IMG/VR virus record: IMGVR_UViG_3300044858_001565
Coordinates: 16,517 to 80,516 of that record
DNA from: a virus
DNA: 64,000 nucleotides
Direction: 5' to 3' (one strand)
The first letter of the stretch is position 1, and each line of letters opens with the position of its first letter. Made by a program: the position numbers and the translations under genes. Of the stretch, positions 18,503 to 40,275 are shown piece by piece. The notes under the pieces were generated by a model, which saw only the letters and a list, made by a program, of their open reading frames with translations, was not told the origin of the DNA and did no database searches.

Positions 18503-21055
18503 TCAAGCGAACAGAGATTCAAGAGTATTTCGTTCTTCGGGACTCCACCCCACTGCATTTGTGATTGCGCGAAGCGGTTCAAGAAATGTCTTTTCAAATT
18601 GGAGTTGGCGATTGATGTATTTCTCAAGCGCGAACTCCTTTGGGATGGATGACGGAAAACCAATGACACTTTCGTGAAATGGATTGGGTGTCTTCAAGTA
18701 GATGAACTTGATCTTCTCGCCGTCACCGATGGTGCGGTACTTCTTGTCTAGTTTCATCCGCTTTATGTGGTGATTGTACAGCAGCGCACCCTTGACTGCA
18801 ATAGGCGTGGACTTTTTGTATACGGTGCCGCTGTGTGCGTACTCTTCCATTCCCGATACGGATCGGGGAGAAGCCACATCCTCAACAGGCAGGGACATGA
18901 ACTCCTTCTCCGTTGCCTTCACAAACTGCTGAAGTGTGCCCTCGTCGCGCATGAGGATCATCTCAATGGCAGTCTTCAGTGCCTTGCGGACATACGCAGG
19001 AGTGGATGAACGGGCAGTCTCAATACCCATGATCTTGAACTTCGGAGTCTTGTAGCGGACACCCTCTGCATCCCATACGGACAGCATATACCTCTTCTTC
19101 GCAGTCCACACGCCCTGCTCGGCAATGACTTCGCGTCCCATCACCATCTTGTTGGAGTAGGCGTTCATGCAGTCCGCAAGGGTGGCGAACTCCCGCTCAA
19201 TCTGTGGCTGAATCACCCGCTCACAGAATCCGTTCAGGAAGTCCACCACCCGTTGCGTGTCCCGCTCGCCCTTGAAGGACGAATCCACCACCTTGCCAAG
19301 TCTCAAATACACGGAGTCGGTGTCCATGTAGATCACATACACCTCGCCGTCCGTCTTCAGGATGCGGTTCAGGAATCGGTTGAGTGCTTCACCGATCCAT
19401 CGGATGCTCAATTGCCCTGAAAGCGTGATGGCTTCCGCAAGCGCCACATCAAAGAATCTGAAGTATTGGTTGCCGATTGCGCCGTATGCGGAGTTCAACT
19501 GAATCTTACGCACCAACTGAAAGTTGTGATACTTGGAAATCTCGTATTCAATCTTTCGCCGCTCGGACTCGGGAGCGTTCTTGTCCAATTCCACAAGCCG
19601 CTTCTGTGCTGCAATCATCAGGCTCTTGTAGTGCTTGCGTTCCACATACATCTTTTCCATCAGTTCGGGAAGGAAGCCTTGGCGGTCGCGGACGAACGCA
19701 ACACCGTTTGCGGCAACACTCGCCCCGTCTGCCTTCGCAGCGTTGAGATATTCCGCAGGATCAACAAACTCCTTCACCGACTCTCCGCTGTTGCGGGACA
19801 GCAAGGACTCTGGAGTAATGCTCCCGCGCCGCCACACGGGATTGGTGTGCTTTGTCTCGGGCGAGATGTTGTACTGCATGATGAGGTGTGGATACAGGGA
19901 GTTCAGGTCAAAACTCACCACCCAATCGTGCTTGCCCACGATGGGGTCCATCACATACGCACCCGCGTACTGATCGTCTTTCTTTTGTTCGGTCTTCTGC
20001 GGGATCACCATGCCCTTGCTCATCAGGTGGTGGTGGATGATGGCATCCCATGTGCGAACTTGGGAAAACACATCCTCAAAGTTCACCCGTGCCGAATACG
20101 CAAGGGCTACAGCCAGTTCCATCAGTTTCAGTTTGGATTCCAAGCGGTCAACGAGCCGCACATCCTGAAGGTTATACTCCATGAACTTCTGAAAGTTCTG
20201 TGCGTAGAATTCCTGAATCGTTTCGTATTCCGCATACGACAGTTTTTCCTCACCCAACTCCACCTTGGAAATGTGGTTCAGGGAATACGCTTCCTGCTTC
20301 ACATAGGTGAAAGTCCTGTACAACTCAAGGTAGTCAAGGGTGGCTACACCGCTAATCACATACGCGGTCTGATCGCGTCCCATGCGGTTCACCACAGTCT
20401 CGCGCAGTCTGCCCCACGGCGAGAGGGAGTTTCCCCATCCTTCTTCAAGATAGTTCATCCGTGCCACAAGGTACGGAATGTCAAAGAAACGGATGTTCCA
20501 TCCTGTCACGATGTCGGGATCAAGGAACTTCCACAGTTCAATGAATCCCGCGAGGAGTTCTCGTTCGTCATCGTAAGGAATGCAGGACACTCCCTCTCCC
20601 TCAATATGAAAGTCTCCCAAGCCTAGCACATAGGTCTTGTCACCCATTGAGATCGTGATCGCAATGACTCGCTCCGTGGGAGCGGAGGGCGTGGGAAAAC
20701 CGCCGTCACACGATGTCTCAATGTCCAAGTTGGCTATGCGGAGGCTGCTGAAGTCATAATCCACTTCATTGGGAAACTCCTTGTAAAGGTATTGGTAAAC
20801 AAAGTTCGTGTTGCCGTAGATTGGATAGTTCCCCACATCCTTGAACTTATCCATGAACTCTCGGGCTTCTCCAATACCGTCAAACTGCACAGGCTGCACA
20901 GGCTTGCCGTTGATGGTGGTGAACTCCCCCGCCTCCTTGGACGGAATGTATAGTGTGGGACAGAACGGAACGCGGAGGTGCTGCCTCTGCCCGTTCTTCC
21001 ATCCACGATACAGGATGTTCTTGCCACGAATATCAACGGAAGTGTAGAAGTCCAT
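18503..21055 (-). CDS. gp43: Family B DNA polymerase (T4 gp43)
   Basis: LDIET, TGWNIRFFDIPY, SFDLNSLYPH, KIQLNSAYG, YMDTDS, KKRY; start at MDFYTSV. Confidence 0.97.
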   Translation of the reverse strand: MDFYTSVDIRGKNILYRGWKNGQRQHLRVPFCPTLYIPSKEAGEFTTINGKPVQPVQFDGIGEAREFMDKFKDVGNYPIYGNTNFVYQYLYKEFPNEVDYDFSSLRIANLDIETSCDGGFPTPSAPTERVIAITISMGDKTYVLGLGDFHIEGEGVSCIPYDDERELLAGFIELWKFLDPDIVTGWNIRFFDIPYLVARMNYLEEGWGNSLSPWGRLRETVVNRMGRDQTAYVISGVATLDYLELYRTFTYVKQEAYSLNHISKVELGEEKLSYAEYETIQEFYAQNFQKFMEYNLQDVRLVDRLESKLKLMELAVALAYSARVNFEDVFSQVRTWDAIIHHHLMSKGMVIPQKTEQKKDDQYAGAYVMDPIVGKHDWVVSFDLNSLYPHLIMQYNISPETKHTNPVWRRGSITPESLLSRNSGESVKEFVDPAEYLNAAKADGASVAANGVAFVRDRQGFLPELMEKMYVERKHYKSLMIAAQKRLVELDKNAPESERRKIEYEISKYHNFQLVRKIQLNSAYGAIGNQYFRFFDVALAEAITLSGQLSIRWIGEALNRFLNRILKTDGEVYVIYMDTDSVYLRLGKVVDSSFKGERDTQRVVDFLNGFCERVIQPQIEREFATLADCMNAYSNKMVMGREVIAEQGVWTAKKRYMLSVWDAEGVRYKTPKFKIMGIETARSSTPAYVRKALKTAIEMILMRDEGTLQQFVKATEKEFMSLPVEDVASPRSVSGMEEYAHSGTVYKKSTPIAVKGALLYNHHIKRMKLDKKYRTIGDGEKIKFIYLKTPNPFHESVIGFPSSIPKEFALEKYINRQLQFEKTFLEPLRAITNAVGWSPEERNTLESLFA

Positions 21056-21318
21056 TATCGCTCCACTACGGCAACCCAATCCTGATGCACCATGTCCTTG
21101 TCTTCGTGACCCTGCCCCTTGTTCTGTGTACGATCCCAAAGAACACGGTCACCTACGCGAATGTCTTCCGACAGTTTATCACCGATTGCCACAACCGTAG
21201 CCCAAATGTAGCGAGAATTGATTATTTCGTTGTAAACAATTCCTGCCGATGTGGTGGTCTGACCTCCAAGGTGAGACTGCACCCAAATCCATTTTCCAAT
21301 TGGCTTGAATTTACCCAT
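21055..21318 (-). CDS. groES: GroES-like co-chaperonin
   Basis: FKPIGKWIWV...TTSAGIV...ATVVAIG...IRVGDRVLW matches the Cpn10 pattern. Confidence 0.75.
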   Translation of the reverse strand: MGKFKPIGKWIWVQSHLGGQTTTSAGIVYNEIINSRYIWATVVAIGDKLSEDIRVGDRVLWDRTQNKGQGHEDKDMVHQDWVAVVER

Positions 21319-26418: not shown

Positions 26419-26630
26419 TCGTTTTGCTTCAGGATTTTGGTGAACTTTTCTTTTTGCAAAATTACCCCTGTGAGTTCATCGGTTTTCAGCACAGAGCGGT
26501 TGTTTGTTTTTTGAAGCACCACACCGCTTGGCTTGGGTTTCACCGAGATTTCGCTTGTCCGCACCACCACCTTGCCCTCTGTCTGCTTGGGCTTAGTGTC
26601 GTGGGAACGGGTCTTGATCCGTATCTTCAT
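26415..26630 (-). CDS. Small basic hypothetical protein
   Basis: 71 aa, K/R-rich, ATGA overlap with upstream gene. Confidence 0.45.
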   Translation of the reverse strand: MKIRIKTRSHDTKPKQTEGKVVVRTSEISVKPKPSGVVLQKTNNRSVLKTDELTGVILQKEKFTKILKQND

Positions 26631-26947
26631 GTTATTTCAAGCACCGAAACCACTGCATGAACAGAACCGGTATTACCTGCTGTGGCACGGAGAGTGTCGT
26701 TTTCCTGCAACACCAACGAAGAGTCAAGTGCCTGTAATGATGTGCTGTTTGGAAGCACTCCGCGAGTGAGGAGTGAATACGCCGTGAGTCCACGAACCAT
26801 TTCAAGAGTAACGGTGGTGGAGTTTGAAGGGTGAACATTTGAAAACACTACGGCATTGACAATGGCAGTTCCGCTCAAGCCCGGATATAGTGCTGTTGCA
26901 GCAGTGGTTCCCATGACTACAGGATAACTTCGGTATGTGTTAGGCAT
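26627..26947 (-). CDS. Small beta-rich virion adaptor-type protein
   Basis: MPNTYRS...LVLQENDTLRA...VSVLEIT pattern common in phage fibre clusters. Confidence 0.6.
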   Translation of the reverse strand: MPNTYRSYPVVMGTTAATALYPGLSGTAIVNAVVFSNVHPSNSTTVTLEMVRGLTAYSLLTRGVLPNSTSLQALDSSLVLQENDTLRATAGNTGSVHAVVSVLEIT

Positions 26948-27152
26948 TGGTGTCCTCGCTCTGTTCGTCCGCAGTGATTCCAAAATGGGTCAGTGCATCG
27001 GTTCGTGAACCAAACCACCACCACCCGTTCACAGGATATGTATGGGTTGAGTGGCTGTCCCTGTACAGGGCAAAGTCTGGTCCTTCCACGAAATTTGGTC
27101 CGTAGAAGAGTTCGGTGTTTTCTAGTTTGTAAAATCCTGATGTGTCTTCCAT
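26940..27152 (-). CDS. Hypothetical protein (possible fibre chaperone)
   Basis: SGFYK..LFYGPNFV...YPVNGWWWF; SD AAAGAGGA. Confidence 0.55.
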   Translation of the reverse strand: MEDTSGFYKLENTELFYGPNFVEGPDFALYRDSHSTHTYPVNGWWWFGSRTDALTHFGITADEQSEDTNA

Positions 27153-27162
27153 ATGGTCCTCT

Positions 27163-29397
27163 TTATCCGGTTACGGTCCAGCCCTTGCCTGTTGCAATGC
27201 TCCTGTTGCAGGCAGCAGCGCCCCAGTTTCCGGTGATGGTTACGGTTTTTCCTGCGCCAGTGGACGACAGATTGGTGAATATGCGGTTCAGTTCAGTCGG
27301 AGACAGGTTGCAGTTTTGATATGAGATGCTTGCGTTTGTTCCATACAGAGTGGCAACAGACAGGTTGTAGCAGTTGGAGAATGTGCTAGAAAATGATGTT
27401 ATGGAAGACGCGGTGAATCCTCCAATAGAAGACAGCCTAGAGCAGTTTGAGAACATACTTGTCACACTGTTAGAAGCAGATGAGGGCATAGTGATATAAC
27501 CCACACTCTGTAATGACAGACATCCAAAGAACATACTGCCAAAAGAAGTGCATAATGGAGCGTTTATATCTGAAACTCTTTTGAGAGAAGTGCAACTGGA
27601 GAACATACTCGAAAGACTTATAGCCTTCGATACATCCAAATTAGGAACTTGTTCCAAAGAATAACAGGAGGTGAACATCTGAGAGAAATCTGTTGCTTTT
27701 GATGTATTCAGTTCTGGAACAGTAATCAAAGCCCCACAACTATCAAACATACCCGAAAGACTGTTTCCATTAACGGTATTCAACGAAGATACCTGCCTCA
27801 AGGCTCGGCAATTCCTAAAAATATTAGCAAATGTCTGACAGGAGGAAGTGTCTCCAAAAGCAACTGTTTCTAGACTTCTACAACCAGAGAACATGGCTGT
27901 CATGTTCGTTGCTTTGGATGTATTGAAAACAGGAACACTCTTCAGACTAGTGCATCCTTCAAACATATATGTAAAATTCAAACATCCACTCGTATCGAAA
28001 AGAGGAATCTCACTCAAACTATTGCAACCGTTAAACATATATGAGCAACTTGTTATGTTTTGAGTATTGATTAGTCTGGGAACAACTCTTAGTGCGTAGC
28101 AATTTACAAACATATTAGCCGTAGAATTGCAATTGCCTAGAGAATATACACCCTGAACATCTCTGAGAGATTTGCAGTTCCAAAACATCTGAAATACACT
28201 AGTGCATTTGCTCAAATCTAGGGGGGGAACTGATAGCAGAGACTCACAACCCAAAAACATATTTCCAAAATCCGTTCCTTTGGATGTGTTCAACTGAGGA
28301 ATGGTCTTCAAAGCCTGACAACTTCCAAACATGGTATTGAACATTGTTCCATTTGATGTGTCTAGTGGAGGAATTTTTTTCAAGGAATAACAACCAGCAA
28401 ACATTCCAAAGAAATTACTAACTTTTGATGTGTCTATGAGTGGAATGCTTTTCAATGCAAAGCATTGATTAAACATATAACCACAATCATTGTTTCTAGA
28501 GGTATCAAGTGCTGGTATTGCGGGTAAAGACCAGCACTCAGCGAACATACCATTCATGTTTTGTCCATTTGATGTATTGAACCTAGAAATATTCACAAGG
28601 GACCGACACCCATCAAACATATTTGAAAAATTTGTTCCGTTTGATGTCCAATCAGTACCAGAAACATTTCTAAGACCCCGACACTTACCAAGTATATACG
28701 AAAAATTTGAAATGGAACTAGATCCAACCCATTCAAAGTTTTGCAAAAGGTCTAGTGTTACTACGGGAGTTGTAATTGGCTGCTTCAGTCCAAAAAAACA
28801 ACCAGTGATTCCAGATCCTGCAATCTTGATGTCTAACCAATTTGCTCCAAGATTTCCTGTTGGAGTTGCACTACCATAGAAAGTAACTCCAGGTTCACGA
28901 TACTGTTTCTGCAAATCAATGAATGTCAGTGTTGCTCCGCCGACATATGCAGGATATGCCTTAATGAGCACCTGCCTGAATCCACCAGATGTTGTTGTTT
29001 CTGCTGATACTCCATCATAATTGTACCGGTATTGTGCTGTTGCTCCAGAAGCATACTGTTGAGTTACACCATTTCCCCAGTCAACAATGTAATCTCTTGC
29101 CAATCCATTCAATCCTAGAGAAAAAGCAACAAAATTGCTGTCAGCAGATGCTCCCGAATTTCCACTCGCTCCCTGATAAATAGCAAGTATTCCACAAAAC
29201 ATCTGATCGCTCGGTGTGAGTGTTGGCATTGGCAGCCAGTCCGCAGGGCGATTCCATGCCGTTGGAAGTTCTGCATCAGATTCATTGGTTTCTACCCCAC
29301 GAACATATCGTTTAGACGGAGAAACCAATCCCCTATCTTCATAGTCAAGGGCATTTAGAGCAATATATCCGTTGTTGTATCTGTTCTTCTTGCTCAT
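27163..29397 (-). CDS. DUF285/BspA-like leucine-rich-repeat surface protein
   Basis: About 20 repeats of (D/N)TSxxxxFxxMFxxCxSLxxIPxL; N-terminal WNRPADWL and IVDWGNG motifs. Confidence 0.85.
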
Positions 29398-31049
29398 GCG
29401 AAAAACCAAGAAAGAGTGCTGTCTCCTCCACCGCCGCCGATGGAAGATATGGTCAAAGTCTGTCCAGATACCGTTATAGTGATGTTTGTTCCTGCTGATA
29501 TACCCACTGGTCCGGACAGTCCGTTCAGAGAAGAAACATAAAAATCAACTGGTCCAGTGTCTCCCTTTGGACCAGTGGGACCAGTGTTTCCTTGTGGTCC
29601 CGTTGGACCAGTCGGACCCGTTGGACCAGGAACTGTGGAGTCTGCGCCAGTATTTCCTTGTGGACCTGTTGGTCCGGTGTTTCCTTGTGGTCCCGTTGGA
29701 CCTATTGGACCAATCGGACCAGTTTCACCTGTGCTGCCTTGCGGTCCTGTCGGACCCATCGGACCTGTTGGACCAATCGGACCAGTTTCACCTGTGCTTC
29801 CCTGTGGACCAGTCGGTCCCGTATTGCCTTGTGGACCAGTCGGACCCATTGGACCAATCGGACCAGTTTCACCTGTGCTGCCTTGCGGTCCTGTCGGACC
29901 CATCGGACCTGTTGGACCAGGAACCGTGGAGTCTGCACCAGTATTGCCTTGTGGACCTGTTGGACCTGTCGGACCCATAGGACCTGTTGGACCAGGAACC
30001 GTGGAGTCTGCGCCAGTATTGCCTTGTGGACCTGTTGGTCCCGTGTTGCCTTGTGGACCAGTCGGACCTGTTGGACCTATTGATCCTGTATTTCCTTGAG
30101 GACCAGTTTCACCTGTGTTGCCTTGTGGTCCTGTCGGACCTGCTGGACCAGGAACGGTGGAGTCTGCACCGGTATTACCCTGTAGACCAGTCGGTCCCGT
30201 ATTGCCTTGTGGACCAGTCGGACCTATTGGTCCTGTATTTCCTTGAGGACCAGTTTCACCTGTGTTGCCTTGTGGTCCTGTCGGACCTGTTGGACCAGGA
30301 ACGGTGGAGTCTGCACCAGTATTGCCTTGTGGACCTGTTGGACCAGTCGGACCTACAGAACCAGTTTCGCCCTTGCTGCCTTGTGGTCCTATCGGACCTG
30401 CTGGACCAGGAACTGTGGAGTCTGCGCCAGTATTGCCTTGTGGACCTGTTGGTCCGGTGTTTCCTTGTGGTCCCGTTGGACCTATGGGACCAGTTTCACC
30501 CTTGCTGCCCTGCGGACCCGGAATCAACACCTGATTTGCAGAAACAAGATTTCCAAAAATGTTTGTTCCGAGAGCAAGAGTAACACCGACAAAACTCAGA
30601 GTTGCACCAGGCAGAACCGCTGTCCCCAACCTAGTCACTTTTGGGCTCACCACAAACTGACCACTCATCAGTTCTTCGGTTCTTCCATCCTTTGCCAGAT
30701 CAATAGAATATTTCCACGAACCAACACGAACATAACTCATCGAAACAGCATCTGCTGAAATGAATATGCCACCAGTCATGGTGGCACCCGTTGATCCCTT
30801 GTTTAGATAAACGCCTCCCACACCAGCAAGACCGCCAGTTGCTCCAAAGTCTCCTGCTGTGCCGCCGCTGATTACTTCACTGTTTGAAATATGAAGATAT
30901 AGACGACTGCTTTCTGTGTTCGGTCGCACTTGCAGGCGTACAGTATAGCCAGTCAGATCAACAGGATCACCGTTTTCATCGTAATACTCTATGTGAAAAT
31001 TAAAGGTGGAACTCTGCTGAGTATTGATGTCGTAGTATGCGGATGCCAT
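29394..31049 (-). CDS. Collagen-like fibre (GPT/GPQ/GNT repeats) with N-terminal anchor domain
   Basis: About 105 triplets; N-terminal domain with [14 protein letters not shown]...WKYSIDL...[14 protein letters not shown]; ends WFFA. Confidence 0.85.
29545..30520 (-). repeat. Collagen repeat region with GADSTVP interruptions
   Basis: ggaccagtcggacc / gtattgccttgtggacc units; [12 protein letters not shown] occurs 6 times. Confidence 0.9.
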
Positions 31050-31076
31050 TACCCTGTTCCCCCTGTGATCGGTTGG

Positions 31077-31472
31077 TCATCCTCTAGTAACTTTAGGCAA
31101 TACCACGAATCTCCCGTGCATGATTTCCTCTGTTGTGTCACCGGCAGTGAGTTCAAGCGAATAGTGCCACGATCCTTCAGGAACATATCCCATAGATTCG
31201 GTGTCAGCAAATATCCTGACCCCACCCGTAAGCACTCCACCTGTCTCACCACAATTCAAATATATTCCACCACTTCCACCCGTGACCCCACTGGTCACGC
31301 CAGAACCCGTTATTTCCAAGTAACGCACATCCGAAGCGGAACTGGGCTTTACATGAAAACGAGCAGAGTACTGTCCCATATTTATAGGAGTTTCGTCATC
31401 GGCAAGATACTCTAAATGCAAATCCAAAGTGGAGTCTTGCTGTGCCTGTATATCGTAATACGCGGATGCCAT
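31077..31472 (-). CDS. Stand-alone paralogue of the collagen fibre's N-terminal anchor domain
   Basis: Both proteins start MASAYYDI and share GxFVVxPKVTR. Confidence 0.75.
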   Translation of the reverse strand: MASAYYDIQAQQDSTLDLHLEYLADDETPINMGQYSARFHVKPSSASDVRYLEITGSGVTSGVTGGSGGIYLNCGETGGVLTGGVRIFADTESMGYVPEGSWHYSLELTAGDTTEEIMHGRFVVLPKVTRG

Positions 31473-31609
31473 TACAATGCCTTTTCCTTGTTTAAAATAT
31501 TTTGGTGACGATTCTGACTCTTTACCAAAACCCTATGCTTTCGTGTCCTGCGAGTGGCACTGCTTGCAAATCCACCACGACCTTTTCCAGACGGAGAATT
31601 TCTAGCCAT
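31472..31609 (-). CDS. Small basic peptide (45 aa)
   Basis: Not in track: MARNSPSGKGRGGFASSATRRTRKHRVLVKSQNRHQNILNKEKAL; TAATG coupling at both ends. Confidence 0.55.
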   Translation of the reverse strand: MARNSPSGKGRGGFASSATRRTRKHRVLVKSQNRHQNILNKEKAL

Positions 31610-32832
31610 TATCGCTTCCTCTTCTTGAAGGTCTTTGCCTTCACTGTATTTATAGTGGTCACCATAGGCTGTGAAATGGGCGAAGAACGCAGCATATTCA
31701 ATGCATCAGGGTGACTCGCCTTTATCTGATTGATGCGTTCCATGTATGAAGCGTGGTTCTTTTGATTACGCTCAATCTCACTCTGCGGCAAACGGTTTTC
31801 TTTGAGCAACTTCTCGCAGGCAGCAAGACCTGTCATGTAGTCGTGAACATAAAAAGCGGTAGAACCCAGTTCGTCCAGTGCCATCCAGTTGTATACATTG
31901 TTGTCAATGAAAAGGATGTCCTGATGTGGATACGGAATTTGAGCCGCTTCTTTTGCAAACAGGTAGGCAGCACGGGGTCGCCCGTTCATCCGCAGAAATC
32001 GCGCAATAGCATGGAGAGGTTCTGCACGGCACGGACGGAAATCATATGAGTCCAAGAACTTCTGCTGCACTGTCGTCCACGGAGACTCCTTGGAGATTTC
32101 ACACAGAGCGATGCGGAACAGGGAGTAGTAGCACTCCTCTTCCCATCCACCCATCTCCACGCGCTTGTAGTATGCTGCAATAGCCTTGTCCCACTGCTGT
32201 GAGTCAAAATACGACTGCGCGAGATAGAACTGATAGCGCGTGTTGTTTGGGTCTGTCTCAAGAGCCTTCTCAAGCAGAATGGCATCCTTGGAATACTTCT
32301 CCACGGGGGTGATGTTCACATTTCGGTGACCAATTGTCCGTGCTTCGAGATGATAATTTCCATCAATCTTGAGTTGATTGAGTGGCTGCTTGTCGCAGTG
32401 CGCGTATTCATGTAGGATTCCCACATACTTCCAACCGATTCCCGTCTTGAAGATTTGATTGCGCCACCAGATGCACTGATCGCGTCCGCACTTCAGAGCA
32501 TATCCATCGTGAATCAGGTTCTTGCCGTTGGGATACACAAAGTTTCCAACAATACGGTCATCTGCATCAATCATCCAAGCATAGTCCGCCTTTCCATCAC
32601 AGAGTGCTAGAGCCTCGGAACGATTGTGTCCAAAGTCAACCCACGGACGCTCATGGAGTTCTCCAGGAATTCCCTTTTCAGCAAAATACTTCTTAATAAG
32701 TTCTTGTGTTCCGTCAGTAGAACCCGTATCCACAATCACCCAATAGTCTATATGTGGAGAGATAGAGTCCAAGCATTCGTGGATAATGTGCGTTTCATTC
32801 TTTACAATCATTGATAGACATACTGTAGACAT
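31609..32832 (-). CDS. GT2 glycosyltransferase with TPR repeats
   Basis: CLSMIVKNE, VDTGSTDGT, DFGHNRS, MIDADD, GILHE; TPR region RYQFYLAQSYFD...AYYKR...RAEPL. Confidence 0.9.
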   Translation of the reverse strand: MSTVCLSMIVKNETHIIHECLDSISPHIDYWVIVDTGSTDGTQELIKKYFAEKGIPGELHERPWVDFGHNRSEALALCDGKADYAWMIDADDRIVGNFVYPNGKNLIHDGYALKCGRDQCIWWRNQIFKTGIGWKYVGILHEYAHCDKQPLNQLKIDGNYHLEARTIGHRNVNITPVEKYSKDAILLEKALETDPNNTRYQFYLAQSYFDSQQWDKAIAAYYKRVEMGGWEEECYYSLFRIALCEISKESPWTTVQQKFLDSYDFRPCRAEPLHAIARFLRMNGRPRAAYLFAKEAAQIPYPHQDILFIDNNVYNWMALDELGSTAFYVHDYMTGLAACEKLLKENRLPQSEIERNQKNHASYMERINQIKASHPDALNMLRSSPISQPMVTTINTVKAKTFKKRKR

Positions 32833-32855
32833 TACGATTCTCCTGTTTATTTCAA

Positions 32856-33443
32856 TCAAGACCACTCATGGACTATGATGTTATTTAGCCTCAATTGATC
32901 TATGAGTTCTTTCTTTTCGGCTATCTTTTTTTCGTGATTTGGATACCAGAATCTATCGTGCCACTCAATGTAGATTTCCTTGACACAGTTTAGTCTGCTG
33001 CTCTTTAGCAAATCCGATAGGAACAAAAACTCTGCTCCTTCTATATCACACTTTATCTTTATGTTATCAGTTTCGCTTGCATCACAAACATATAGAAGTG
33101 TCTCCGCACAAATACTATTGACTGGAATTTGCGACCAAGAAAAAGATGCTCCATAAACAACATCCATCTCTGGAGGAGACTCTAGAGCGTTACAAGCATT
33201 ACTTGTTTTATTTTTCTCTATGTTGAACGGAACTATTCCGTCAGTATCAAGAACAGCACAGTTATAAACGGTGAGACTGGAAAATCGGTTTCGTATGACA
33301 TCTGCTCGGTCTAATGCTTTCACATAGACATATGGATTTGCCTCAAAACTATAAACAGAATATGTGTGGTCTATTGCTCCCGTAGACAGTATGCTTTCTA
33401 GACCTTCTAATCCATGACAACCTAAATCTATAAACTTGTTCAC
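32856..33443 (-). CDS. FkbM-family methyltransferase
   Basis: FIDLGCH, YSFEANP, KIKCDIEGAEF, IYIEWH; GTG start after GGAGG. Confidence 0.85.
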   Translation of the reverse strand: MNKFIDLGCHGLEGLESILSTGAIDHTYSVYSFEANPYVYVKALDRADVIRNRFSSLTVYNCAVLDTDGIVPFNIEKNKTSNACNALESPPEMDVVYGASFSWSQIPVNSICAETLLYVCDASETDNIKIKCDIEGAEFLFLSDLLKSSRLNCVKEIYIEWHDRFWYPNHEKKIAEKKELIDQLRLNNIIVHEWS

Positions 33444-33462
33444 TTGTATATCCTCCAAGAGG

Positions 33463-34395
33463 TCAACTAGAAACCACCGAATCAAACTTCTGATCTATGA
33501 TCTTTCTAAGCACATCAAACTTAGATCCTTCTTCCACAGAAGCATTCCACCTTCTGGCGCTATGCCAGTGCCAAGCAAAACAGCCTTCATGTGGATCGTA
33601 AGCGTAGTCGTGCTTCTTGAGGTGATTGAAATCCGATGGCATATTGGCAAGCAACTCTATATTGAACCAAGAGCAGGGCAGTTTATACAAATTGGGATCT
33701 TGCACGACATCATACAAAGCACACCCCCAACATACACTGTTTGGAACGGGTCTAATATATCGTAGTTGTTCTAGGAATCTAAATGCTGTAATGCTTTCCT
33801 TTTGCAACCCCATTATCGCGCCGTTACAGAGTATTCTTTTTGGTGGCGGACCACCCATTGGATTTAGAGCGTCAGGATTGGCTCCAGTATCTCCCCATTG
33901 ATACAGAAAATTCAGATCATTGAGCGGACTCATATCCCGTAGGATGAAGACATCCATATCAACAAAAAATCCACCGTACTTGTATAAACACAAAATCTTG
34001 AACAGGTCTATTCCTAGCCAGCACAAAGAATCATCTACTACCACGGACTTAAAATAGTCTATGTGATCCTCTAGTGGGGTTCCTACCATCTCTTCTAGCG
34101 GATTCCAAAGCCGATGCTTCACGAAAGGAGAAACCGGCTTCAAGATTTCGTTTTGACTCAAATCAAGATTAGACCACAGATTAATCTCGTAATTTTCGTG
34201 ATTCATCTCTTCGTGGTTTGCAACTATGGATTTCAGACAGGTAAGATGTTTGTCTCCCACATCGGAGGGAACTCTCCAATACAGATGAAACTGCATCTTG
34301 TTTGGTGTTCTGTTCGGCTTGAGTGTTTTTGCAAAAGATAAAGCGTCAGTATAATCTTTGCAGTATAAATTTGGATGTGTGTTTATTGATATCAT
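33463..34395 (-). CDS. DXD-motif glycosyltransferase (GT32-like)
   Basis: DLFKILCLYKYGGFFVDMDV, NGAIM, WG, FAWHWH. Confidence 0.85.
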   Translation of the reverse strand: MISINTHPNLYCKDYTDALSFAKTLKPNRTPNKMQFHLYWRVPSDVGDKHLTCLKSIVANHEEMNHENYEINLWSNLDLSQNEILKPVSPFVKHRLWNPLEEMVGTPLEDHIDYFKSVVVDDSLCWLGIDLFKILCLYKYGGFFVDMDVFILRDMSPLNDLNFLYQWGDTGANPDALNPMGGPPPKRILCNGAIMGLQKESITAFRFLEQLRYIRPVPNSVCWGCALYDVVQDPNLYKLPCSWFNIELLANMPSDFNHLKKHDYAYDPHEGCFAWHWHSARRWNASVEEGSKFDVLRKIIDQKFDSVVSS

Positions 34396-34422
34396 GTAAA
34401 CCTCTACTCTAAATGACGATAA

Positions 34423-35271
34423 TCATAATACTGAACCATCTTTGCAAATAGAACTATAGTAATCACACATATACTTTATTCCATCCGAAATACTAGTCTT
34501 TGGTTTCCAATAGTTCAAGATGTTTGTATTGGGATCATTTCTTGCATTTCGCTGAATGCAATCAACATCCACCGAAGGAACTATATCACATTGTATGTTG
34601 GATTGAATAATCTTAGCAATATCTATTATCTTCACCCACTCAAAACTAGACACATGAAAATCTTCTGACCTATCAATAGAATCGTAAATAGTGGATAGTT
34701 GGTGTAGGCACTCGCAGCAGTCATCAGCATATAGAAACTGACGCTCTTCCATTCCATCAGTCATCATATCAATAGTTCCAGTGTTGATAGCCTTCTTTAT
34801 AAAGTCGGTTATAACATGAGATTTCTCTTCATCGTGTTCAATTCCATACACATTCCAAAACCTAGCAACCAAGCCATTTAGCGATCTTGTATAGCGTTCA
34901 CCGAGTCTTTTAAGCGTTCCATATGAAGAATATTCCATACTAGACATCTGCGAAGACGCAAACAAAAACGGCTTTTTTGATTCGTTCAAATAATAAAAGC
35001 CCGTATTCATTATTTTTATGTTGTTGTCTATGAACTGGTAAGTATCTTGATATCGTTTCAAGTATCTTGATCCACCAACATCAAACGCTAGAAAATACAC
35101 AAAATCTGCGGTATTGATCTTTTCTTTCAAAAGATCATTTGGATACTTTCTGATATCGTGATCTTCTGACAAAACTATATCAAAAGTGTCGGCAATGTGT
35201 CCCCGATCAATTAGAAATTTTGTTAGATGACTACCGATTTGTCCAGAAGAACCAAGGATCAAATATCGCAT
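34423..35271 (-). CDS. NAD-dependent nucleotide-sugar epimerase/dehydratase
   Basis: ILGSSGQIG, FASS, YGTLK, RFWNVYG, RQFLYADD. Confidence 0.9.
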   Translation of the reverse strand: MRYLILGSSGQIGSHLTKFLIDRGHIADTFDIVLSEDHDIRKYPNDLLKEKINTADFVYFLAFDVGGSRYLKRYQDTYQFIDNNIKIMNTGFYYLNESKKPFLFASSQMSSMEYSSYGTLKRLGERYTRSLNGLVARFWNVYGIEHDEEKSHVITDFIKKAINTGTIDMMTDGMEERQFLYADDCCECLHQLSTIYDSIDRSEDFHVSSFEWVKIIDIAKIIQSNIQCDIVPSVDVDCIQRNARNDPNTNILNYWKPKTSISDGIKYMCDYYSSICKDGSVL

Positions 35272-35837
35272 CAGTATTTCCTCAATATGGTGAGTCCATT
35301 GCAAAACGGAAGAGTAGAGTATTCCCAAACATCAGAATCAAGACCACATACTGCGCCAAATGGTCCGCCGTTTCCAAACTCACCGTATCCAACATCTGTG
35401 TTGTAATTCGGATGAGTCCTAGCCATCAGATCATGGAGGAGTACTACAGTATTTTTATTGCAATACGGTTCTAGAAGGTCTATCTCTTTTTTAACATGAA
35501 TACCATCATGCCAATCATCAATAAAAATCAAATCGAATGAAGTCTGATTTTTTTCTAGAAAGTCGATTGCATCGCTCTTTAAGAAATTCCAATTTGGTTT
35601 TAAATCTTCTGGACAATCAAAGGTCGTTTCTTCAATATCGACAGATGTTACAGTTGCACCCAATTCCTTTGCTGCTGCTAAAAGAGGAAGAGTGGTGTGT
35701 CCCTCTCTAACACCAAGTTCAAGAAATCTCTTTCCTCTAGTCGTGAGTGCAATCCCAAAAATTGCGGCGCACAATTGTTCCGAATCACCCGATCCATTGA
35801 CAGTAGTGTGTATTATTTTTTCAATATAACTATTCAT
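35271..35837 (-). CDS. Class I SAM-dependent methyltransferase
   Basis: FLELGVREG, SVDI, FDLIFIDDWH, VLLHD, NGLTIL. Confidence 0.85.
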   Translation of the reverse strand: MNSYIEKIIHTTVNGSGDSEQLCAAIFGIALTTRGKRFLELGVREGHTTLPLLAAAKELGATVTSVDIEETTFDCPEDLKPNWNFLKSDAIDFLEKNQTSFDLIFIDDWHDGIHVKKEIDLLEPYCNKNTVVLLHDLMARTHPNYNTDVGYGEFGNGGPFGAVCGLDSDVWEYSTLPFCNGLTILRKY

Positions 35838-36682
35838 CAGTGTACACTTTCTTCAAATGTTTTGTCTGCATATCCCCACAACTCTGAATTGTGAGTAACC
35901 ACATACTTGTTGAACGCATCCTCTTTGTTGTTTCTTATAATCGTATTGTCCTTTGTCCAGAAGTATGGATTATTTTTGTGTTCTAGATGAAACCAATCAA
36001 TATCTAAAAGTTCAACAGAATGTCCTTTTAGATTTGCAACCTTTGCTTGCACATTGGAATCACTAAAACATCTATGATAAAGTGCCTCTTCAAACCCACG
36101 AATAGTATTCCATACAGACCGGTGTGCTGCTTGAAAATCTCCACAACCAATTACTAGAGAATATCTGTCTGCTGGATCATATTTTTCTATTCTTTCCATC
36201 TTTTCAAGAATGTTTCTATTTTGAATTAGAGCAGATATCTTGTCTGATGGACTGAGATTCAATAGATGTATCAGGTGTATGTTCTCTGGAACATTCCACT
36301 TTGCTATGGTATAGATTTTTTTAGGATCAAGTGTCTGTTCTGAAAATGGAGTTGGTATATTGTCTATGTTGCAGGAGACAATCCAATCTCCTTTTGCTCT
36401 GCGTATTCCGACATTTCTAGCCAAGACTTCGCAGCATGGCTGTGCTTCTTTTGGCAGATTGGCTGCGACAAACCCTTTATCGACAGTAATACATCGCAGT
36501 TTTCCTGTCGGTTGGACAAAATCTTTTATCTGATCTATCATTGGAACACCATGAGGAGAGTTCCAATCTACGAGTATAACCTCATCAAAAACCTCTACCA
36601 TGCAGTTCAAACACTGAATTGCTCTTTCTGCCAAGAACATCCCGTAATTATCATTTCTAGTTGGTATTACAGCAGTTTTCAC
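35837..36682 (-). CDS. Putative glycosyltransferase (GT-A fold)
   Basis: RNDNYG, ILVDWNS, ARNVGIRRAKGDWIVSCNID, GDFQ, GFEE. Confidence 0.7.
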   Translation of the reverse strand: MKTAVIPTRNDNYGMFLAERAIQCLNCMVEVFDEVILVDWNSPHGVPMIDQIKDFVQPTGKLRCITVDKGFVAANLPKEAQPCCEVLARNVGIRRAKGDWIVSCNIDNIPTPFSEQTLDPKKIYTIAKWNVPENIHLIHLLNLSPSDKISALIQNRNILEKMERIEKYDPADRYSLVIGCGDFQAAHRSVWNTIRGFEEALYHRCFSDSNVQAKVANLKGHSVELLDIDWFHLEHKNNPYFWTKDNTIIRNNKEDAFNKYVVTHNSELWGYADKTFEESVH

Positions 36683-36696
36683 ATGAAACTCTCTTT

Positions 36697-37392
36697 CTAG
36701 TAATGAACTTTAGTCCACTCATTTTTTCTAGAAAACTCAATGTCGTGAACTTTGCACATATGATAAAAAAGTTTACCAGAAAGTCTACTCATAGATTCGA
36801 CTAAATGGATGAAAGATGAATCTATACAATGTACTTCCGTTGCCTTTTCTACAACACACATCCAGTCAAACATGGAAGATTCGCTGCTTGTGTGACGAAC
36901 TCTGACTATTGGTAGATCAGTGTCTATTTTCAAATCATACTTTCCAATACTAGAAACATCGTGAACCAATAAAAATTTTTCAGGAAGGTTTAGTTCTGCT
37001 ATGAGTTTTTGCTCGCTAATGTGATTTCTCTTGATGTAGAAAGAATCCCATCTTTCGCTGAAAGGAACACCGACAGAATCATACATTGACTTATCAAACT
37101 CAGAATTGATACACTTCTCAAAACCTGCACGAACCAATCTAATTTTTGACCAATCATATGGCATATTGTATAAATCCTGATCGTGCTGAACAGGAAGTAT
37201 CTTTATGCGTGGTTCATCTGCATACATGGCTTTTACATTATTTCCATATTTATTTTTAGTCACTAGCCACAAGCAAGATGGAGATGCGTGTTTGAGTATA
37301 TATCGTACCATTCCATTGCAAATGATATGATCTCCTAGTCCAAGATGGTGATGAACTATTATTGAATTAGGATCAAAATCAATATGCTGCAT
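36697..37392 (-). CDS. Putative glycosyltransferase (GT-B/GT9-like)
   Basis: HHHLGLGDHIICNGMVR; ATEVHCIDSSFIHLV. Confidence 0.6.
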   Translation of the reverse strand: MQHIDFDPNSIIVHHHLGLGDHIICNGMVRYILKHASPSCLWLVTKNKYGNNVKAMYADEPRIKILPVQHDQDLYNMPYDWSKIRLVRAGFEKCINSEFDKSMYDSVGVPFSERWDSFYIKRNHISEQKLIAELNLPEKFLLVHDVSSIGKYDLKIDTDLPIVRVRHTSSESSMFDWMCVVEKATEVHCIDSSFIHLVESMSRLSGKLFYHMCKVHDIEFSRKNEWTKVHY

Positions 37393-37750
37393 ATGATTTT
37401 TCCTCAAACAAAGAAGATCCTGTTTGCTCGTTTATCTTTCTTTTTATTGAAGCGCGAGCATCGTTGACAATGTAAACCTTTCTAGCCAACTCAATAAACT
37501 CTTGATCGAATTCTTTCGCTCTTTCTTTGTCTCTTATTGCGTCTTCAATTATCCACAACTCGGCGTTCACGGACTTTAGTTGTTGAAACAGAGGATGATC
37601 TGTTTCCATAAAAGAATTCATGCCAGGTAGTATGGCATTCAGTTCACTGATGACATTAGAAATCTTTTCTGGATTGGATAGTCTTTCTTTCTTTATCATC
37701 AGAATAGAAACCTTGTCTGCTATCTCTCCATTAGAAACTTCTATCTTCAT
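37379..37750 (-). CDS. DUF6165-like protein
   Basis: IEVSNGEIADKVSILMIK...LWIIEDAIR...FIELARKVYIVND.RA.IK..IN...S.L.EEKSY. Confidence 0.75.
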   Translation of the reverse strand: MKIEVSNGEIADKVSILMIKKERLSNPEKISNVISELNAILPGMNSFMETDHPLFQQLKSVNAELWIIEDAIRDKERAKEFDQEFIELARKVYIVNDARASIKRKINEQTGSSLFEEKSYAAY

Positions 37751-38457
37751 CGTGGATCTCGCGTGTGAATAAGGAACTGATGCTCTTCTCCATTTTCTCC
37801 GTGCTGAACTCCCCATTGCGTGGGATCTGGCATCATAGTAATGGAATGCTTCTTTGTCAATAGACTCCATATAGATTGATCGTGACGATGATCCACGAAT
37901 CCTAGTTCAATCCATCCGTCCTCATTCGGACCATCCATTATTAGTTTGGGATTGCAGCAGAGAGACAGATATTCATTTGCAATGAATCTAGCAAAATCCG
38001 TTCCTCTGAAACACATGAAACTAGCCATCCTCTGGGGTGTATCAGTGTACTCTGGCGTTACTGCATCCATGTAAGTAAATACATCTCTTTTAGTATAGTA
38101 CTTTTCTAGATGCTTTCCTGCAAGATTAAAAGAAATAACACCTCTTGCATCCAAATGAACTTCATTAAACACAGGCTCCATTCTACGAACAAACACAGAA
38201 CCAGAATCGGAGTAAAAAAGAACATCATCTGGTGTTAATGTTGACAGTATTTTTGTTATGAAGTATGGTTTCCACAACCAATACCCAACTCCTCTTTTCT
38301 GTGACAGTATGTTGTTGTTTGTCTTCATAAAATCGGAGTCTATATCAGAACGACCCATGTTGTAGACAACATTAAATCCCGATGCCAATCCAGTTTGGCT
38401 GTTCAACAACTGCGAGTGTAAAAACTTTCCATCAGCGTAGTTTAATAGAACCTTCAT
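37747..38457 (-). CDS. Putative glycosyltransferase
   Basis: RGVGYWLWKPYFI, LFYSDSG, HRHDQSIWSLL; located in glycan cassette. Confidence 0.65.
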   Translation of the reverse strand: MKVLLNYADGKFLHSQLLNSQTGLASGFNVVYNMGRSDIDSDFMKTNNNILSQKRGVGYWLWKPYFITKILSTLTPDDVLFYSDSGSVFVRRMEPVFNEVHLDARGVISFNLAGKHLEKYYTKRDVFTYMDAVTPEYTDTPQRMASFMCFRGTDFARFIANEYLSLCCNPKLIMDGPNEDGWIELGFVDHRHDQSIWSLLTKKHSITMMPDPTQWGVQHGENGEEHQFLIHTRDPR

Positions 38458-39092
38458 TGCTGCTCCTGTGGGACAAGCGATTCGGTGGTCTTTGAATTGT
38501 AAATGTAACCATGAAGGGATTCTGGAATGTGATACTCCGTCTGCACCTTTGGATACAACCGCATGAGCCAGTCAATATCTTCACTAGACTGACCATTTGA
38601 TCCATATACTGGATTGAATGCCTCGCTGACCGCGATCTCACGCCGCCACACACACATATGGTACGGCGGACGCTTGATGTCACCAAGGAATCCCTCCTCG
38701 TCGCGCCACAACTGCCCATGCGGATTACCGATGCCAAACTCCACATCCATCGGCTCACCGTCAAGGCTGCACCACTGGTTGAATGTAATGCAGTCCACAT
38801 CGTTCTCGTCAATAGCAGTCAGTATCTTGCTCATATAATCCATGCTGACCGCATCATCATCATCCAAGAAAGCAATATACTTGCCCCGTGCCATCTGCAA
38901 AAGATCATTGCGCTTCTCGGAAATGCTCTTGGACTTGTTGTCAAGCAGAACAAGAATCTCAACAGACTTGCCCTGCCCCGTGGCATCGACTTGTTCCTGT
39001 AGATGCGTGACCGCCGCCTTCAGCGATTCAAATCGGGACGGGATGGACAGAATCAGAATGCTGAACTTGATTTCACTTGCTGGTACCGGCAT
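38454..39092 (-). CDS. GT2 glycosyltransferase
   Basis: FSILILSIPSR, SISEKRNDLL..ARGKYIAFLDDDD, SSEDIDW. Confidence 0.88.
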   Translation of the reverse strand: MPVPASEIKFSILILSIPSRFESLKAAVTHLQEQVDATGQGKSVEILVLLDNKSKSISEKRNDLLQMARGKYIAFLDDDDAVSMDYMSKILTAIDENDVDCITFNQWCSLDGEPMDVEFGIGNPHGQLWRDEEGFLGDIKRPPYHMCVWRREIAVSEAFNPVYGSNGQSSEDIDWLMRLYPKVQTEYHIPESLHGYIYNSKTTESLVPQEQQ

Positions 39093-39777
39093 AGAACATC
39101 TTCTCCATGTCAAATTTATTGGCTGCACGACGCTTGAAGGTTTCACCGTCGATTCCGTACATTTCCTTATTTTCATTCCGTGCATGGAGCGTATCCCACG
39201 GTTCTCCGCTCCACTGATGCTGAATGATGCACAGATCACACCGCCGCAACTTGCCCAACGCCATGCACACCTGCGTCTGCTCATTGTCGCAGTACAGGGA
39301 CTTGTATTCAGGATTGTAAATGTATCCAAACCGCTTGTATAAGGGGAATCCCATGACCGTGAGGGTCATCAGGGGGTCTTCCTTTGGACGCAATCCGTCC
39401 CAGAACTTGATGGCACCATCGTAATCGGGAAAAGCCTGTGCGTACACCTGACTGATGATCTCGTCGTATCCCATGTGGACTGGCACCATATCGTCCGATG
39501 CCAGCATCAGAACATCGCCGTCCACTCCCTCTAGATTGGCGTTGCAAGCCTCAATCTTCGTCTTGGAGTGCCCGTAAAAGCACTCTATTTGGGCACAGCG
39601 GGCACGGGTGGCAATCCACTGCTGCATGGCATCGTTGTTCATGGTTGCGTCATCCTCGTCCATAGTGAGGATGAACCGCACATCATGCCGACCACTGAGG
39701 AATGTCAGGTATCGGGTGAATACGGCTTTGAACTTGTCCGGACGATTACGGGTGGGGAACTTTATCACTAGTCTCAT
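39073..39777 (-). CDS. GT2-like glycosyltransferase
   Basis: IKFPTRNRP, KIEACN, LASDDMVP, YKSLYCDNE, IQHQW. Confidence 0.8.
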   Translation of the reverse strand: MRLVIKFPTRNRPDKFKAVFTRYLTFLSGRHDVRFILTMDEDDATMNNDAMQQWIATRARCAQIECFYGHSKTKIEACNANLEGVDGDVLMLASDDMVPVHMGYDEIISQVYAQAFPDYDGAIKFWDGLRPKEDPLMTLTVMGFPLYKRFGYIYNPEYKSLYCDNEQTQVCMALGKLRRCDLCIIQHQWSGEPWDTLHARNENKEMYGIDGETFKRRAANKFDMEKMFYAGTSK

Positions 39778-39792
39778 TATGAATCTCCATTT

Positions 39793-40230
39793 TCACTCTT
39801 CGGGTTTAATGTTCTTCTTGGAACGCCCTATGTGGTATTTAGGACACAATTCCCACTCGCCCTTCTCCTTGTACGGGAGAATCTTTATTTTGTTCAGCGG
39901 GACTCGCTCTTCAGCCTTTTTCTTGTCAACAATCTTGACAAGCCCCCACTCTTCCAGCAGACACGCAATGGTATTTCTCCGTCCAATGTCTTCGGAATTT
40001 ATGGATGTGGGTAGATCATCCAGAGCAAACATCTCCTTGAAGTGGACAATGTAGTATTTGCCCTTCTTGTGGAGAATGTGGCAGGACTGCCACAGTTTCT
40101 TTTCAGTACGGGACGAAACGCCAATTCGGGTAAGCGTTTCACGGACTTTCAAAAAGTCATCAGGCTTTTGTAGGGTGACCTCTAGAAGATCGGTTGCTTC
40201 AAGGTCGATATAGCGTTCGTCTTGTTCCAT
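39793..40230 (-). CDS. regA: Translational repressor RegA
   Basis: PDDFLKVRETLTRIGV, QSCHILHKKGKYYIVHFKE, WELCPKYHIG. Confidence 0.96.
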   Translation of the reverse strand: MEQDERYIDLEATDLLEVTLQKPDDFLKVRETLTRIGVSSRTEKKLWQSCHILHKKGKYYIVHFKEMFALDDLPTSINSEDIGRRNTIACLLEEWGLVKIVDKKKAEERVPLNKIKILPYKEKGEWELCPKYHIGRSKKNIKPEE

Positions 40231-40268: not shown

Positions 40269-40275
40269 TATTTAG
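40269..40275 (-). promoter_or_regulatory. Late-type promoter CTAAATA upstream of regA
   Basis: TATTTAG on + strand in the gp62-regA gap. Confidence 0.55.

Follow-up and report, generated by a model that had tools for sequence, protein, structure and literature searches.

In Clostridioides difficile, the glycosyltransferase (GT) SgtA combines a GT-A domain with tetratricopeptide repeats (TPR), is encoded directly upstream of bclA3 and transfers β-O-GlcNAc to Thr residues of Gly-Pro-Thr (GPT) repeats. It also accepts Ser, and its reaction is the initiating step in the glycosylation of the spore exosporium collagen (PMC7157674). In actinobacteriophages, phage GTs are proposed or shown, in the wording of the citing papers, to O-glycosylate the phages' own structural proteins in the cytoplasm, the acceptors being the C-termini of capsid and tail-tube subunits in siphoviruses of Gram-positive hosts (Freeman et al. 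2023, as cited in PMC12619734 and PMC12801897). Clusters named for lipopolysaccharide (LPS), as 'LPS/cell-wall modification' genes, are found in the T4-like cyanophages P-SSM2, S-SCSM1 and S-SCSM2R and are without experimental function (PMC12801897). The gene island analysed here is a variant of these themes and forms no separate category. It lies in a 64,000-nt stretch of DNA (the window), positions 16,517-80,516 of the IMG/VR record IMGVR_UViG_3300044858_001565 from an uncultured virus, and comprises a cassette of sugar genes (A to J), a TPR-bearing glycosyltransferase (TPR-GT) and a gene for a Thr-rich collagen-like fibre. In the favoured explanation, given a probability of about 0.47, it is a module that O-glycosylates proteins of the tail fibres in the cytoplasm late in infection, with TPR-GT as the protein-directed enzyme. 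A preliminary description of the window had given the action of SgtA on a neighbouring Thr collagen as established, in agreement with PMC7157674, and had proposed glycosylation of the window's collagen and a glycan coat of the particle. This idea is partly supported, being right in kind, too narrow on the target and too broad on the coat.

Compared by architecture only, the enzyme resembles SgtA in its N-terminal GT-A domain, C-terminal TPR domain, length (~360-400 residues) and, in the window, location upstream of a collagen gene with Gly-Pro-Thr repeats. The setting differs, since the genome is that of a T4-like phage, two small genes separate enzyme and collagen, and the phage enzyme is kept in relatives without Thr collagens. 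The collagen differs from BclA3 in its phage fibre-anchor N-terminus and in its C-terminus, a 50-residue tail in which Pfam finds no TNF/C1q-like BclA_C domain. With the actinobacteriophages, as far as the citing papers describe them, the island would share phage-encoded GTs for the phage's own structural proteins. Here, however, the phage is a lake T4-like myovirus with a collagen fibre and an immunoglobulin (Ig)-like anchor as candidate acceptors and TPR-GT as the proposed initiating enzyme, and its sugar island is large and open to exchange. The cyanophage clusters, too, belong to aquatic myoviruses of T4 type and contain many GTs and nucleotide-sugar epimerases, whereas the island analysed here has a fixed site between regA and gp43, a conserved terminal GT of protein type and a coupling to fibre genes.

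Sequence and structural model support the assignment of TPR-GT to the protein-directed GT-A+TPR class, and the enzyme is proposed to be a protein O-glycosyltransferase. Besides the GT2-type domain, TPR_17 and ANAPC3 score above their cut-offs, and D89-A-D91-D92 (the DADD or DxD motif) is invariant in 29 homologues. In the AlphaFold2 (AF2) model (predicted local distance difference test, pLDDT, 89.5), residues 176-381 are all-helical with high confidence. By sequence, the GT domain matches GmaR (E 3.5e-8) and also SunS/ThuS. GmaR is the flagellin O-GlcNAc transferase of Listeria, and SunS and ThuS are glycocin peptide glycosyltransferases. In Foldseek comparisons, SunS/ThuS are the best whole-length structural match (E 3e-15, ~390 of 407 columns), with a GT-A domain and a helical TPR-like peptide-binding domain, while wall-teichoic-acid enzymes match in the GT-A half only. 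Identity to SunS/ThuS is only 14-17% and TPR-GT scores 35.7 bits against the SunS family cut-off of 350 (TIGR04195); it therefore resembles the SunS class without belonging to it. No glycocin precursor peptide or export gene was found beside TPR-GT, which is flanked by genes for sugar enzymes and fibres. In a search of 50,697 phage records, the enzyme gives only 29-35% matches, to a jumbo phage and huge uncultured phages and none of them T4-like, and the cultured cyanophage records contain no homologue.

The strongest support for a collagen-directed function is the family-wide pairing of TPR-GT with G-X-Thr collagens. Bacterial homologues were collected by scanning 185,579 species genomes with patterns derived from the enzyme alone, so that the collagen association is not built in. 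At least 358 relatives were found and the best 80 analysed, which are 39-48% identical over almost the full length and belong to Mycobacterium, other Actinomycetota, Planctomycetes, Verrucomicrobia, Burkholderiales, Halieaceae, Rhodospirillales, Flagellimonas, Chlamydiae, Pyrinomonadaceae and others. The closest cellular homologues are those of mycobacteria and other Actinomycetota (many Mycobacterium loci, L086-L146). A collagen-like open reading frame (ORF) is present within 6 kb in 24 of these 80 loci and within 1.5 kb in 18, and the Y positions of its G-X-Y triplets are almost all Thr (e.g. 38/38, 57/57, 75/76, 77/83 and 120/139). PF01391 is found in all 10 collagen ORFs tested (nine bacterial and one from a clade-B phage locus, see below); the bacterial ones include one weak BclA_C match and one PE-collagen fusion. 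At L095:3900-5780, the TPR-GT homologue has as its neighbour a protein in which a PE domain is joined to a collagen region of G-A-T type. In five whole bacterial genomes (2.3-5.4 Mb), the collagen adjoining TPR-GT is the only collagen locus in three and the main one in two.

In the phage lineage, the conserved neighbour of TPR-GT is g131, a gene for a 131-residue protein, and not the Thr collagen. IMG/VR contains 168 stretches homologous to TPR-GT, of which 80 loci were analysed with 10-kb flanks. They fall into three clades, and g131 adjoins TPR-GT in 70 of them. In clade A (n = 37, TPR-GT identity at least 67%), g131 adjoins in all 37 loci, and in 21 it overlaps the stop of TPR-GT or abuts on it. 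The gene order is gp44-gp62-regA-A-B-(7-9 kb variable cassette)-TPR-GT-(45-aa ORF)-g131-small ORF-dUTPase-UvdE-gp43. In clade B (n = 35, identity 55-64%), TPR-GT is followed by g131, adjoining in 33 loci, and the collagens are of Thr type in 15 loci and of Gln/Lys/Pro type in 20. In clade C (n = 8, identity 51-52%), the order is regA-TPR-GT-dUTPase, with TPR-GT starting 35 nt after regA and with neither an adjoining g131 nor a collagen or cassette. Two tandem g131-like genes were detected by profile search 8-10 kb upstream in the three clade-C records with enough sequence. The preliminary description had named co-occurrence with Thr collagens across T4-like genomes as a check on its proposal: such collagens accompany TPR-GT in 15/35 loci of clade B and in 0/37 and 0/8 of clades A and C. 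Its claim that TPR-GT acts on the Thr collagen keeps the backing of the protein-directed enzyme class and of the bacterial G-X-Thr pairing, and loses that of a conserved phage partner.

TPR-GT, a 45-aa ORF and g131 are translationally coupled by TAATG stop-start overlaps and are followed, after a 27-nt gap, by the collagen gene, which starts 560 nt downstream of TPR-GT. This confirms the order given earlier, namely the GT2+TPR enzyme, two small ORFs and the collagen; the small ORFs have 45 and 131 aa. The 45-aa ORF has homologues at the same place in 11 close relatives. The AF2 model of g131 (pLDDT 90.8) is an Ig-like β-sandwich. Among solved structures, Foldseek matches it to tail-tip chains of T5/DT57C (~140 aa) and to the 80alpha baseplate, with E 4e-6 to 3e-5 for the chains 8hqz_Q/T and 7qg9_L/J; among predicted structures (BFVD, TM 0.7-0.78), the best matches include BppU_N domains and N-terminal parts of minor tail proteins from actinophages. 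In the phages that carry them, BppU_N and p132 attach fibres or receptor-binding proteins at the baseplate or tail tip. The β-sandwich is common to g131, the N-terminus of the collagen protein, the N-terminal domain of BppU and the T5 collar protein p132. The g131 family differs from the latter two in a conserved Gly/Ser/Thr-rich loop with G-x-T elements, and g131 has no detectable sequence similarity to cultured phages (no tblastn match in the 50,697 phage records). On the evidence of the modelled fold, g131 is most likely a fibre-anchor module and the collagen protein a tail or baseplate fibre rather than a capsid coat. The glycan coat of the whole particle has accordingly been set aside, as the anchor fold indicates the tail. 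The loop of the g131 family is a possible second glycan acceptor. In the stand-alone g131 of the window, ~20 residues of this loop are lost.

The collagen protein consists of an N-terminal g131-type anchor (~140 aa), a hydrophobic linker, 104 G-X-Y triplets and the 50-aa tail. Its first 140 residues are a paralogue of g131 (51% identity; HMM E 8e-56 with the g131 family), and the single g131 of the relatives is closer to this N-terminus than to the window's own g131. As described before, Thr prevails at position Y (55 of the 104 triplets, followed by Gln with 21) and the triplets GPT, GNT, GET and GST all occur; Pro occupies X in 62. Six 'STVP' breaks interrupt the repeats. The hydrophobic stretch between anchor and repeats (residues 143-162, window 30560-30620, Kyte-Doolittle 1.59) could be a trimerisation or neck element. 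Fusions of the g131 domain in proteins of 303-965 aa were not found in a set of 5.8 billion proteins by a word-based search of limited sensitivity, and within that sensitivity the g131-collagen fusion seems rare. The start of the next gene, encoding a DUF285 protein, overlaps the collagen stop. This gene occurs in only 1/80 related loci, and its product is the probable distal adhesin of the collagen fibre. Whole records of five clade-A relatives contain one collagen each, an orthologue of a second, charged fibre of the window (11434-13209). Because these relatives have the charged collagen only, the window's Thr collagen, its DUF285 gene and two small ORFs are an insertion relative to the nearest relatives.

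Genes A to J and TPR-GT follow each other closely on the minus strand, where neighbours overlap or are separated by no more than 27 nt, and all elements of the run lie where the preliminary description had placed them. Of the 'about seven' GTs announced there, four are firm (B, I and TPR-GT by Pfam above cut-off, A by PHROG); F is weak, below cut-off, and C and E are language-model (Atlas) leads only. The epimerase (H) and the two methyltransferases (G and J) are present as described. Gene A has no Pfam or NCBIfam match, and C and E gave no match in HMM searches. Genes A and B are kept in close relatives (72-96% identity, n = 16, and 69-95%, n = 19, respectively). The inner cassette (window 32856-38457) has ~37% GC, against ~49% in the flanks and elsewhere, and is the segment that differs between relatives otherwise 90-99% identical. 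Low GC and divergence suggest a recent exchange of the cassette. In the 80 loci, the 768 ORFs upstream of TPR-GT form 240 clusters and constitute a hypervariable island of nucleotide-sugar enzymes and GTs. The families encountered most often in 100 representatives are epimerases/dehydratases, GDP-mannose dehydratase, RmlD and DegT aminotransferases, then FkbM, TylF and C-methyltransferases together with nucleotidyl- and cytidylyl-transferases, and GT2, GT10, GT25 and GT47. With A and B fixed at one end and TPR-GT at the other, the layout is that of an exchangeable glycan locus. Synteny is the ground on which we infer that cassette and TPR-GT act on one glycan.

Expression of TPR-GT is likely to be late, to judge from the motifs preceding it; the phage also has a gene for the late sigma factor gp55. 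The heptamer [AC]TAAATA occurs 14 times on the coding strand and twice on the other, and is found 13-65 nt before the starts of the tube, fibre, collagen-fibre, regA, gene A, TPR-GT and 45-aa ORF reading frames. The late-type promoter predicted earlier at 40269, which was thought able to drive the whole run, does contain CTAAATA; it lacks the full consensus TATAAATA, and closer motifs exist at 39842, 32888 and 31654. Across the 80 loci, the heptamer lies within 100 nt upstream of TPR-GT in 56, compared with a background of 0.05 per 100 nt, and 54 of 71 loci have the motif upstream of g131 or the 45-aa ORF. In clade B, the motif turns up again ~10 nt ahead of the ribosome-binding site, in AT-rich spacers of unrelated sequence. 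A scan for sigma-70 promoters found sites no more numerous than in shuffled sequence.

These elements can be arranged in a mechanism. TPR-GT would be a soluble GT-A enzyme whose C-terminal TPR/helical domain binds the substrate. Produced alongside the late structural proteins, it would place the first sugar on Ser or Thr in stretches of Gly-X-Thr type. The main acceptor in the phage of the window would be the collagen fibre, which is especially rich in Thr, is presumably anchored to the tail via its BppU_N/p132-like domain and has the DUF285 adhesin as its probable cap. The cassette, in which A and B flank an AT-rich exchangeable core, would extend and methylate the glycan in the cytoplasm, and its exchange would give each phage strain its own fibre glycan. 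Domain content, fold, synteny, gene coupling and the family-wide tie to G-X-Thr collagens are what the analysis shows, whereas acceptor, donor sugar and late timing are in this scheme what we infer.

Several observations weigh against this explanation. The 37 closest phage relatives keep TPR-GT and have no collagen within 10 kb. The eight clade-C loci have TPR-GT without a cassette, an adjoining g131 or a collagen, so that the enzyme needs neither cassette nor Thr collagen. A complete relative (147 kb, with terminal repeats) is devoid of Thr-type collagen and has only the charged E/D-R/K collagen, which in the relatives has just 4-5 Thr at Y. Among the bacterial homologues, 56/80 loci are without a nearby collagen, and a Pfam tally of the neighbours in these loci revealed no consistent partner, only scattered GT2 enzymes and methyltransferases. 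As g131-like folds also occur in phages without TPR-GT, the adjacency of the two genes may be plain synteny. Several late-type motifs lie inside coding sequence and are possibly kept for coding reasons: in clade A, the motif before TPR-GT overlaps the conserved end of the upstream epimerase (...EHK-stop), and in clade C and before gene A, it falls within regA codons (P-K-Y). Conservation of CTAAATA at the end of regA could reflect coding, promoter function or both. The notion that every [AC]TAAATA is a promoter has been tempered for these copies in conserved codons. Finally, similar sugar-gene clusters of cyanomyoviruses are usually read as modifying the host cell surface (PMC12801897).

Remodelling of the host envelope is the strongest alternative, less probable than the favoured explanation. 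Genes A to J, and perhaps TPR-GT, would alter host LPS, O-antigen, capsule or other surface glycans, blocking superinfection or changing grazing and recognition, and the adjacency to fibre genes would be accidental. Comparable GT/epimerase clusters of cyanomyoviruses are interpreted in this way (PMC12801897), the cassettes of the relatives include GT25 'LPS biosynthesis', RmlD and DegT genes typical of O-antigen pathways, and the island shares its hypervariability and high AT content with O-antigen loci that are exchanged horizontally. The occurrence of TPR-GT without a cassette means that the two need not form one pathway, and peripheral GTs could use lipid-linked intermediates of the host. 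However, no flippase, polymerase or initiating polyprenyl-phosphate transferase was found in the cassette, nor any such Pfam family among the 100 cassette representatives, and no 19-aa window in genes A to J or TPR-GT reaches the hydrophobicity of 1.6 usually required of a membrane segment. Host enzymes could supply the membrane steps of a pathway dependent on undecaprenyl phosphate. Further, the end of the island is always a protein-type GT, stop-start coupled to a tail structural gene, late-type motifs precede gene A and TPR-GT, and the fold and bacterial contexts of TPR-GT indicate protein acceptors. For genes A to J, envelope modification is plausible.

Modification of a host protein by TPR-GT is improbable. 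The target would be flagellin, pilin, S-layer or a collagen-like surface protein, with a role in takeover or superinfection exclusion, and the fibres would stay unmodified. The GT domain does resemble that of the flagellin-modifying GmaR, and the enzyme persists in phages without collagen in the available sequence. Because bacterial homologues are widespread, hosts could carry matching acceptors. Yet in 70/80 loci TPR-GT is joined to late genes of the tail fibre, and late-type motifs stand before it. An enzyme made so late would have little time left for altering the surface of the host, and no candidate target in a host came to light.

Hypermodification of DNA, by which the GTs would put a complex glycan on hydroxymethylated bases to evade restriction, has been rejected as highly improbable: sets of phage GTs do hypermodify DNA with diverse glycans, according to a paper citing the work (Pyle et al. 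2024, as cited in PMC12619734), and replication genes surround the island, but the cassette has no membrane proteins, no hydroxymethylase gene of the ThyA or dCMP-hydroxymethylase family (PF00303) was found in the contig, in an 83%-complete relative or in the complete one, and dTMP supply is ordinary (a thymidylate-synthase-like gene and dCMP deaminase). Nor would one expect of DNA glycosyltransferases a SunS-like fold, TPR domains or an association with sugar O-methyltransferases.

The source record is an 80.5-kb IMG/VR contig, ~45% complete, with all coding on the minus strand and the gene order of a cyanophage-type T4-like myovirus: terminase, sheath, tube, portal, protease, scaffold and major capsid protein; UvsW, gp55, gp47/46, gp45, gp44, gp62 and regA; gp43, UvsX, gp41 and gp61, then fibre genes. 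The island occupies the variable region between regA and gp43. The nearest cultured relatives reach just ~57% identity in gp44, and megablast of 15 kb against the 50,697 phage records gave no match. Near-identical DNA is present in at least seven lake-water metagenome runs. Contigs of four of such runs reproduce the arrangement with zero mismatches, so that it is not an assembly artefact. Metagenome assemblies of this phage break only within the collagen repeats. Within the repeats (window 29600-30460), contigs from four lakes are joined in many different ways and have loose ends, which could reflect variation in repeat number or mere assembly failure. Since assemblies of repeats are unreliable, these joints are left uninterpreted. 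The positions of the features are compiled in Table 1. The thymidylate-synthase-like gene is probably ThyX, as the contig contains no match to the ThyA family. The second, charged collagen-like fibre is kept in all five close relatives checked, and its C-terminal motif 'G.NITI..SG.T.TISS' resembles the tail of the Thr collagen.

Table 1. Positions of the island genes, late-promoter-like motifs and other features (window coordinates; those of the clade-C relatives refer to their own records)
Feature	Position	Strand	Evidence or remark
Thymidylate-synthase-like gene (238 aa), dCMP deaminase, gp55 late sigma factor	13228-13944, 50212-50760, 47204-47806 (in this order)		
CTAAATA, promoter of the preliminary description	40269-40275	-	39 nt before regA; not full TATAAATA
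regA	39793-40230		
CTAAATA	39836-39842	-	59 nt before gene A, within regA codons for P-K-Y
Gene A, glycosyltransferase-like, first of island	39073-39777	-	phrog_14945 glycosyltransferase, E 3.8e-8
Gene B, GT2 glycosyltransferase	38454-39092	-	PF00535, E 9e-9, above cut-off
Gene C, possible GT-A enzyme	37747-38457	-	Atlas lead, GT34-like nucleotide-diphospho-sugar transferase cluster, score 0.95
Gene D, DUF6165	37379-37750	-	PF19662, E 5.6e-12
Gene E	36697-37392	-	weak Atlas lead, GT9-like cluster, score 0.91
Gene F, weakly GT2-like	35837-36682	-	PF00535, E 0.0029, below cut-off
Gene G, S-adenosylmethionine (SAM) methyltransferase (Methyltransf_24)	35271-35837	-	PF13578, E 3.2e-15
Gene H, NAD-dependent sugar epimerase/dehydratase (SDR)	34423-35271	-	PF01370, E 3.4e-18
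Gene I, DXD-motif glycosyltransferase	33463-34395	-	PF04488, E 4e-7, above cut-off
Gene J, FkbM-family methyltransferase	32856-33485	-	TIGR01444, 39.5 bits (cut-off 37.7)
CTAAATA	32882-32888	-	50 nt before TPR-GT ATG, inside end of gene J
TPR-GT: GT-A (GT2) domain, TPR/helical domain, basic tail	31609-32832	-	PF00535, E 3.3e-10
TATAAATA, full T4 late consensus	31647-31654	-	38 nt before 45-aa ORF
45-aa ORF, strongly basic, between TPR-GT and g131	31472-31609	-	TAATG stop-start overlap on both sides
g131 (131 aa), candidate Ig-like fibre anchor of BppU_N/T5-p132 type	31077-31472	-	phrog_1084; joined by TAATG
Collagen-like fibre	29394-31049	-	PF01391, E 3e-38, sole Pfam match
DUF285 protein (BspA-like leucine-rich repeat)	27163-29397	-	PF03382, E 1.9e-47
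gp43	18503-21139		
Second collagen-like fibre, charged	11434-13209		X = Glu/Asp, Y = Arg/Lys; CTAAATA 6 nt before start
Tandem g131-like genes of clade-C relatives	G006:C1:61030-61911; G007:C1:27017-27888; G008:C1:13392-14264		

To our knowledge, virion glycosylation by phage enzymes is documented so far for a few actinobacteriophages only. If the favoured explanation of a fibre-directed O-glycosylation module is true, a strain-variable fibre glycan would add a layer to host recognition and would bear on protection of the fibres from proteases or defence systems and on competition between phages; fibre glycosylation might also account for the 'LPS' gene clusters whose presence in aquatic T4-like phages is puzzling. 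The bacterial pairing generalises SgtA/BclA3 well beyond Firmicutes: the TPR-GT family is tied to G-X-Thr collagens in Actinomycetota, Proteobacteria, Verrucomicrobia, Bacteroidota, Chlamydiae and Acidobacteria, which yields a prediction for the modification of collagen-like surface proteins there. A wider picture can be put forward tentatively. An abundant uncultured T4-like lineage of lakes may possess a modular 'glycotype' system, in which a conserved late collagen-directed O-glycosyltransferase and an exchangeable cassette would create strain-specific fibre glycans, a phage counterpart of O-antigen diversity, and the same TPR-GT family may be a general enzyme for Gly-X-Thr collagen-like surface proteins across many bacterial phyla.

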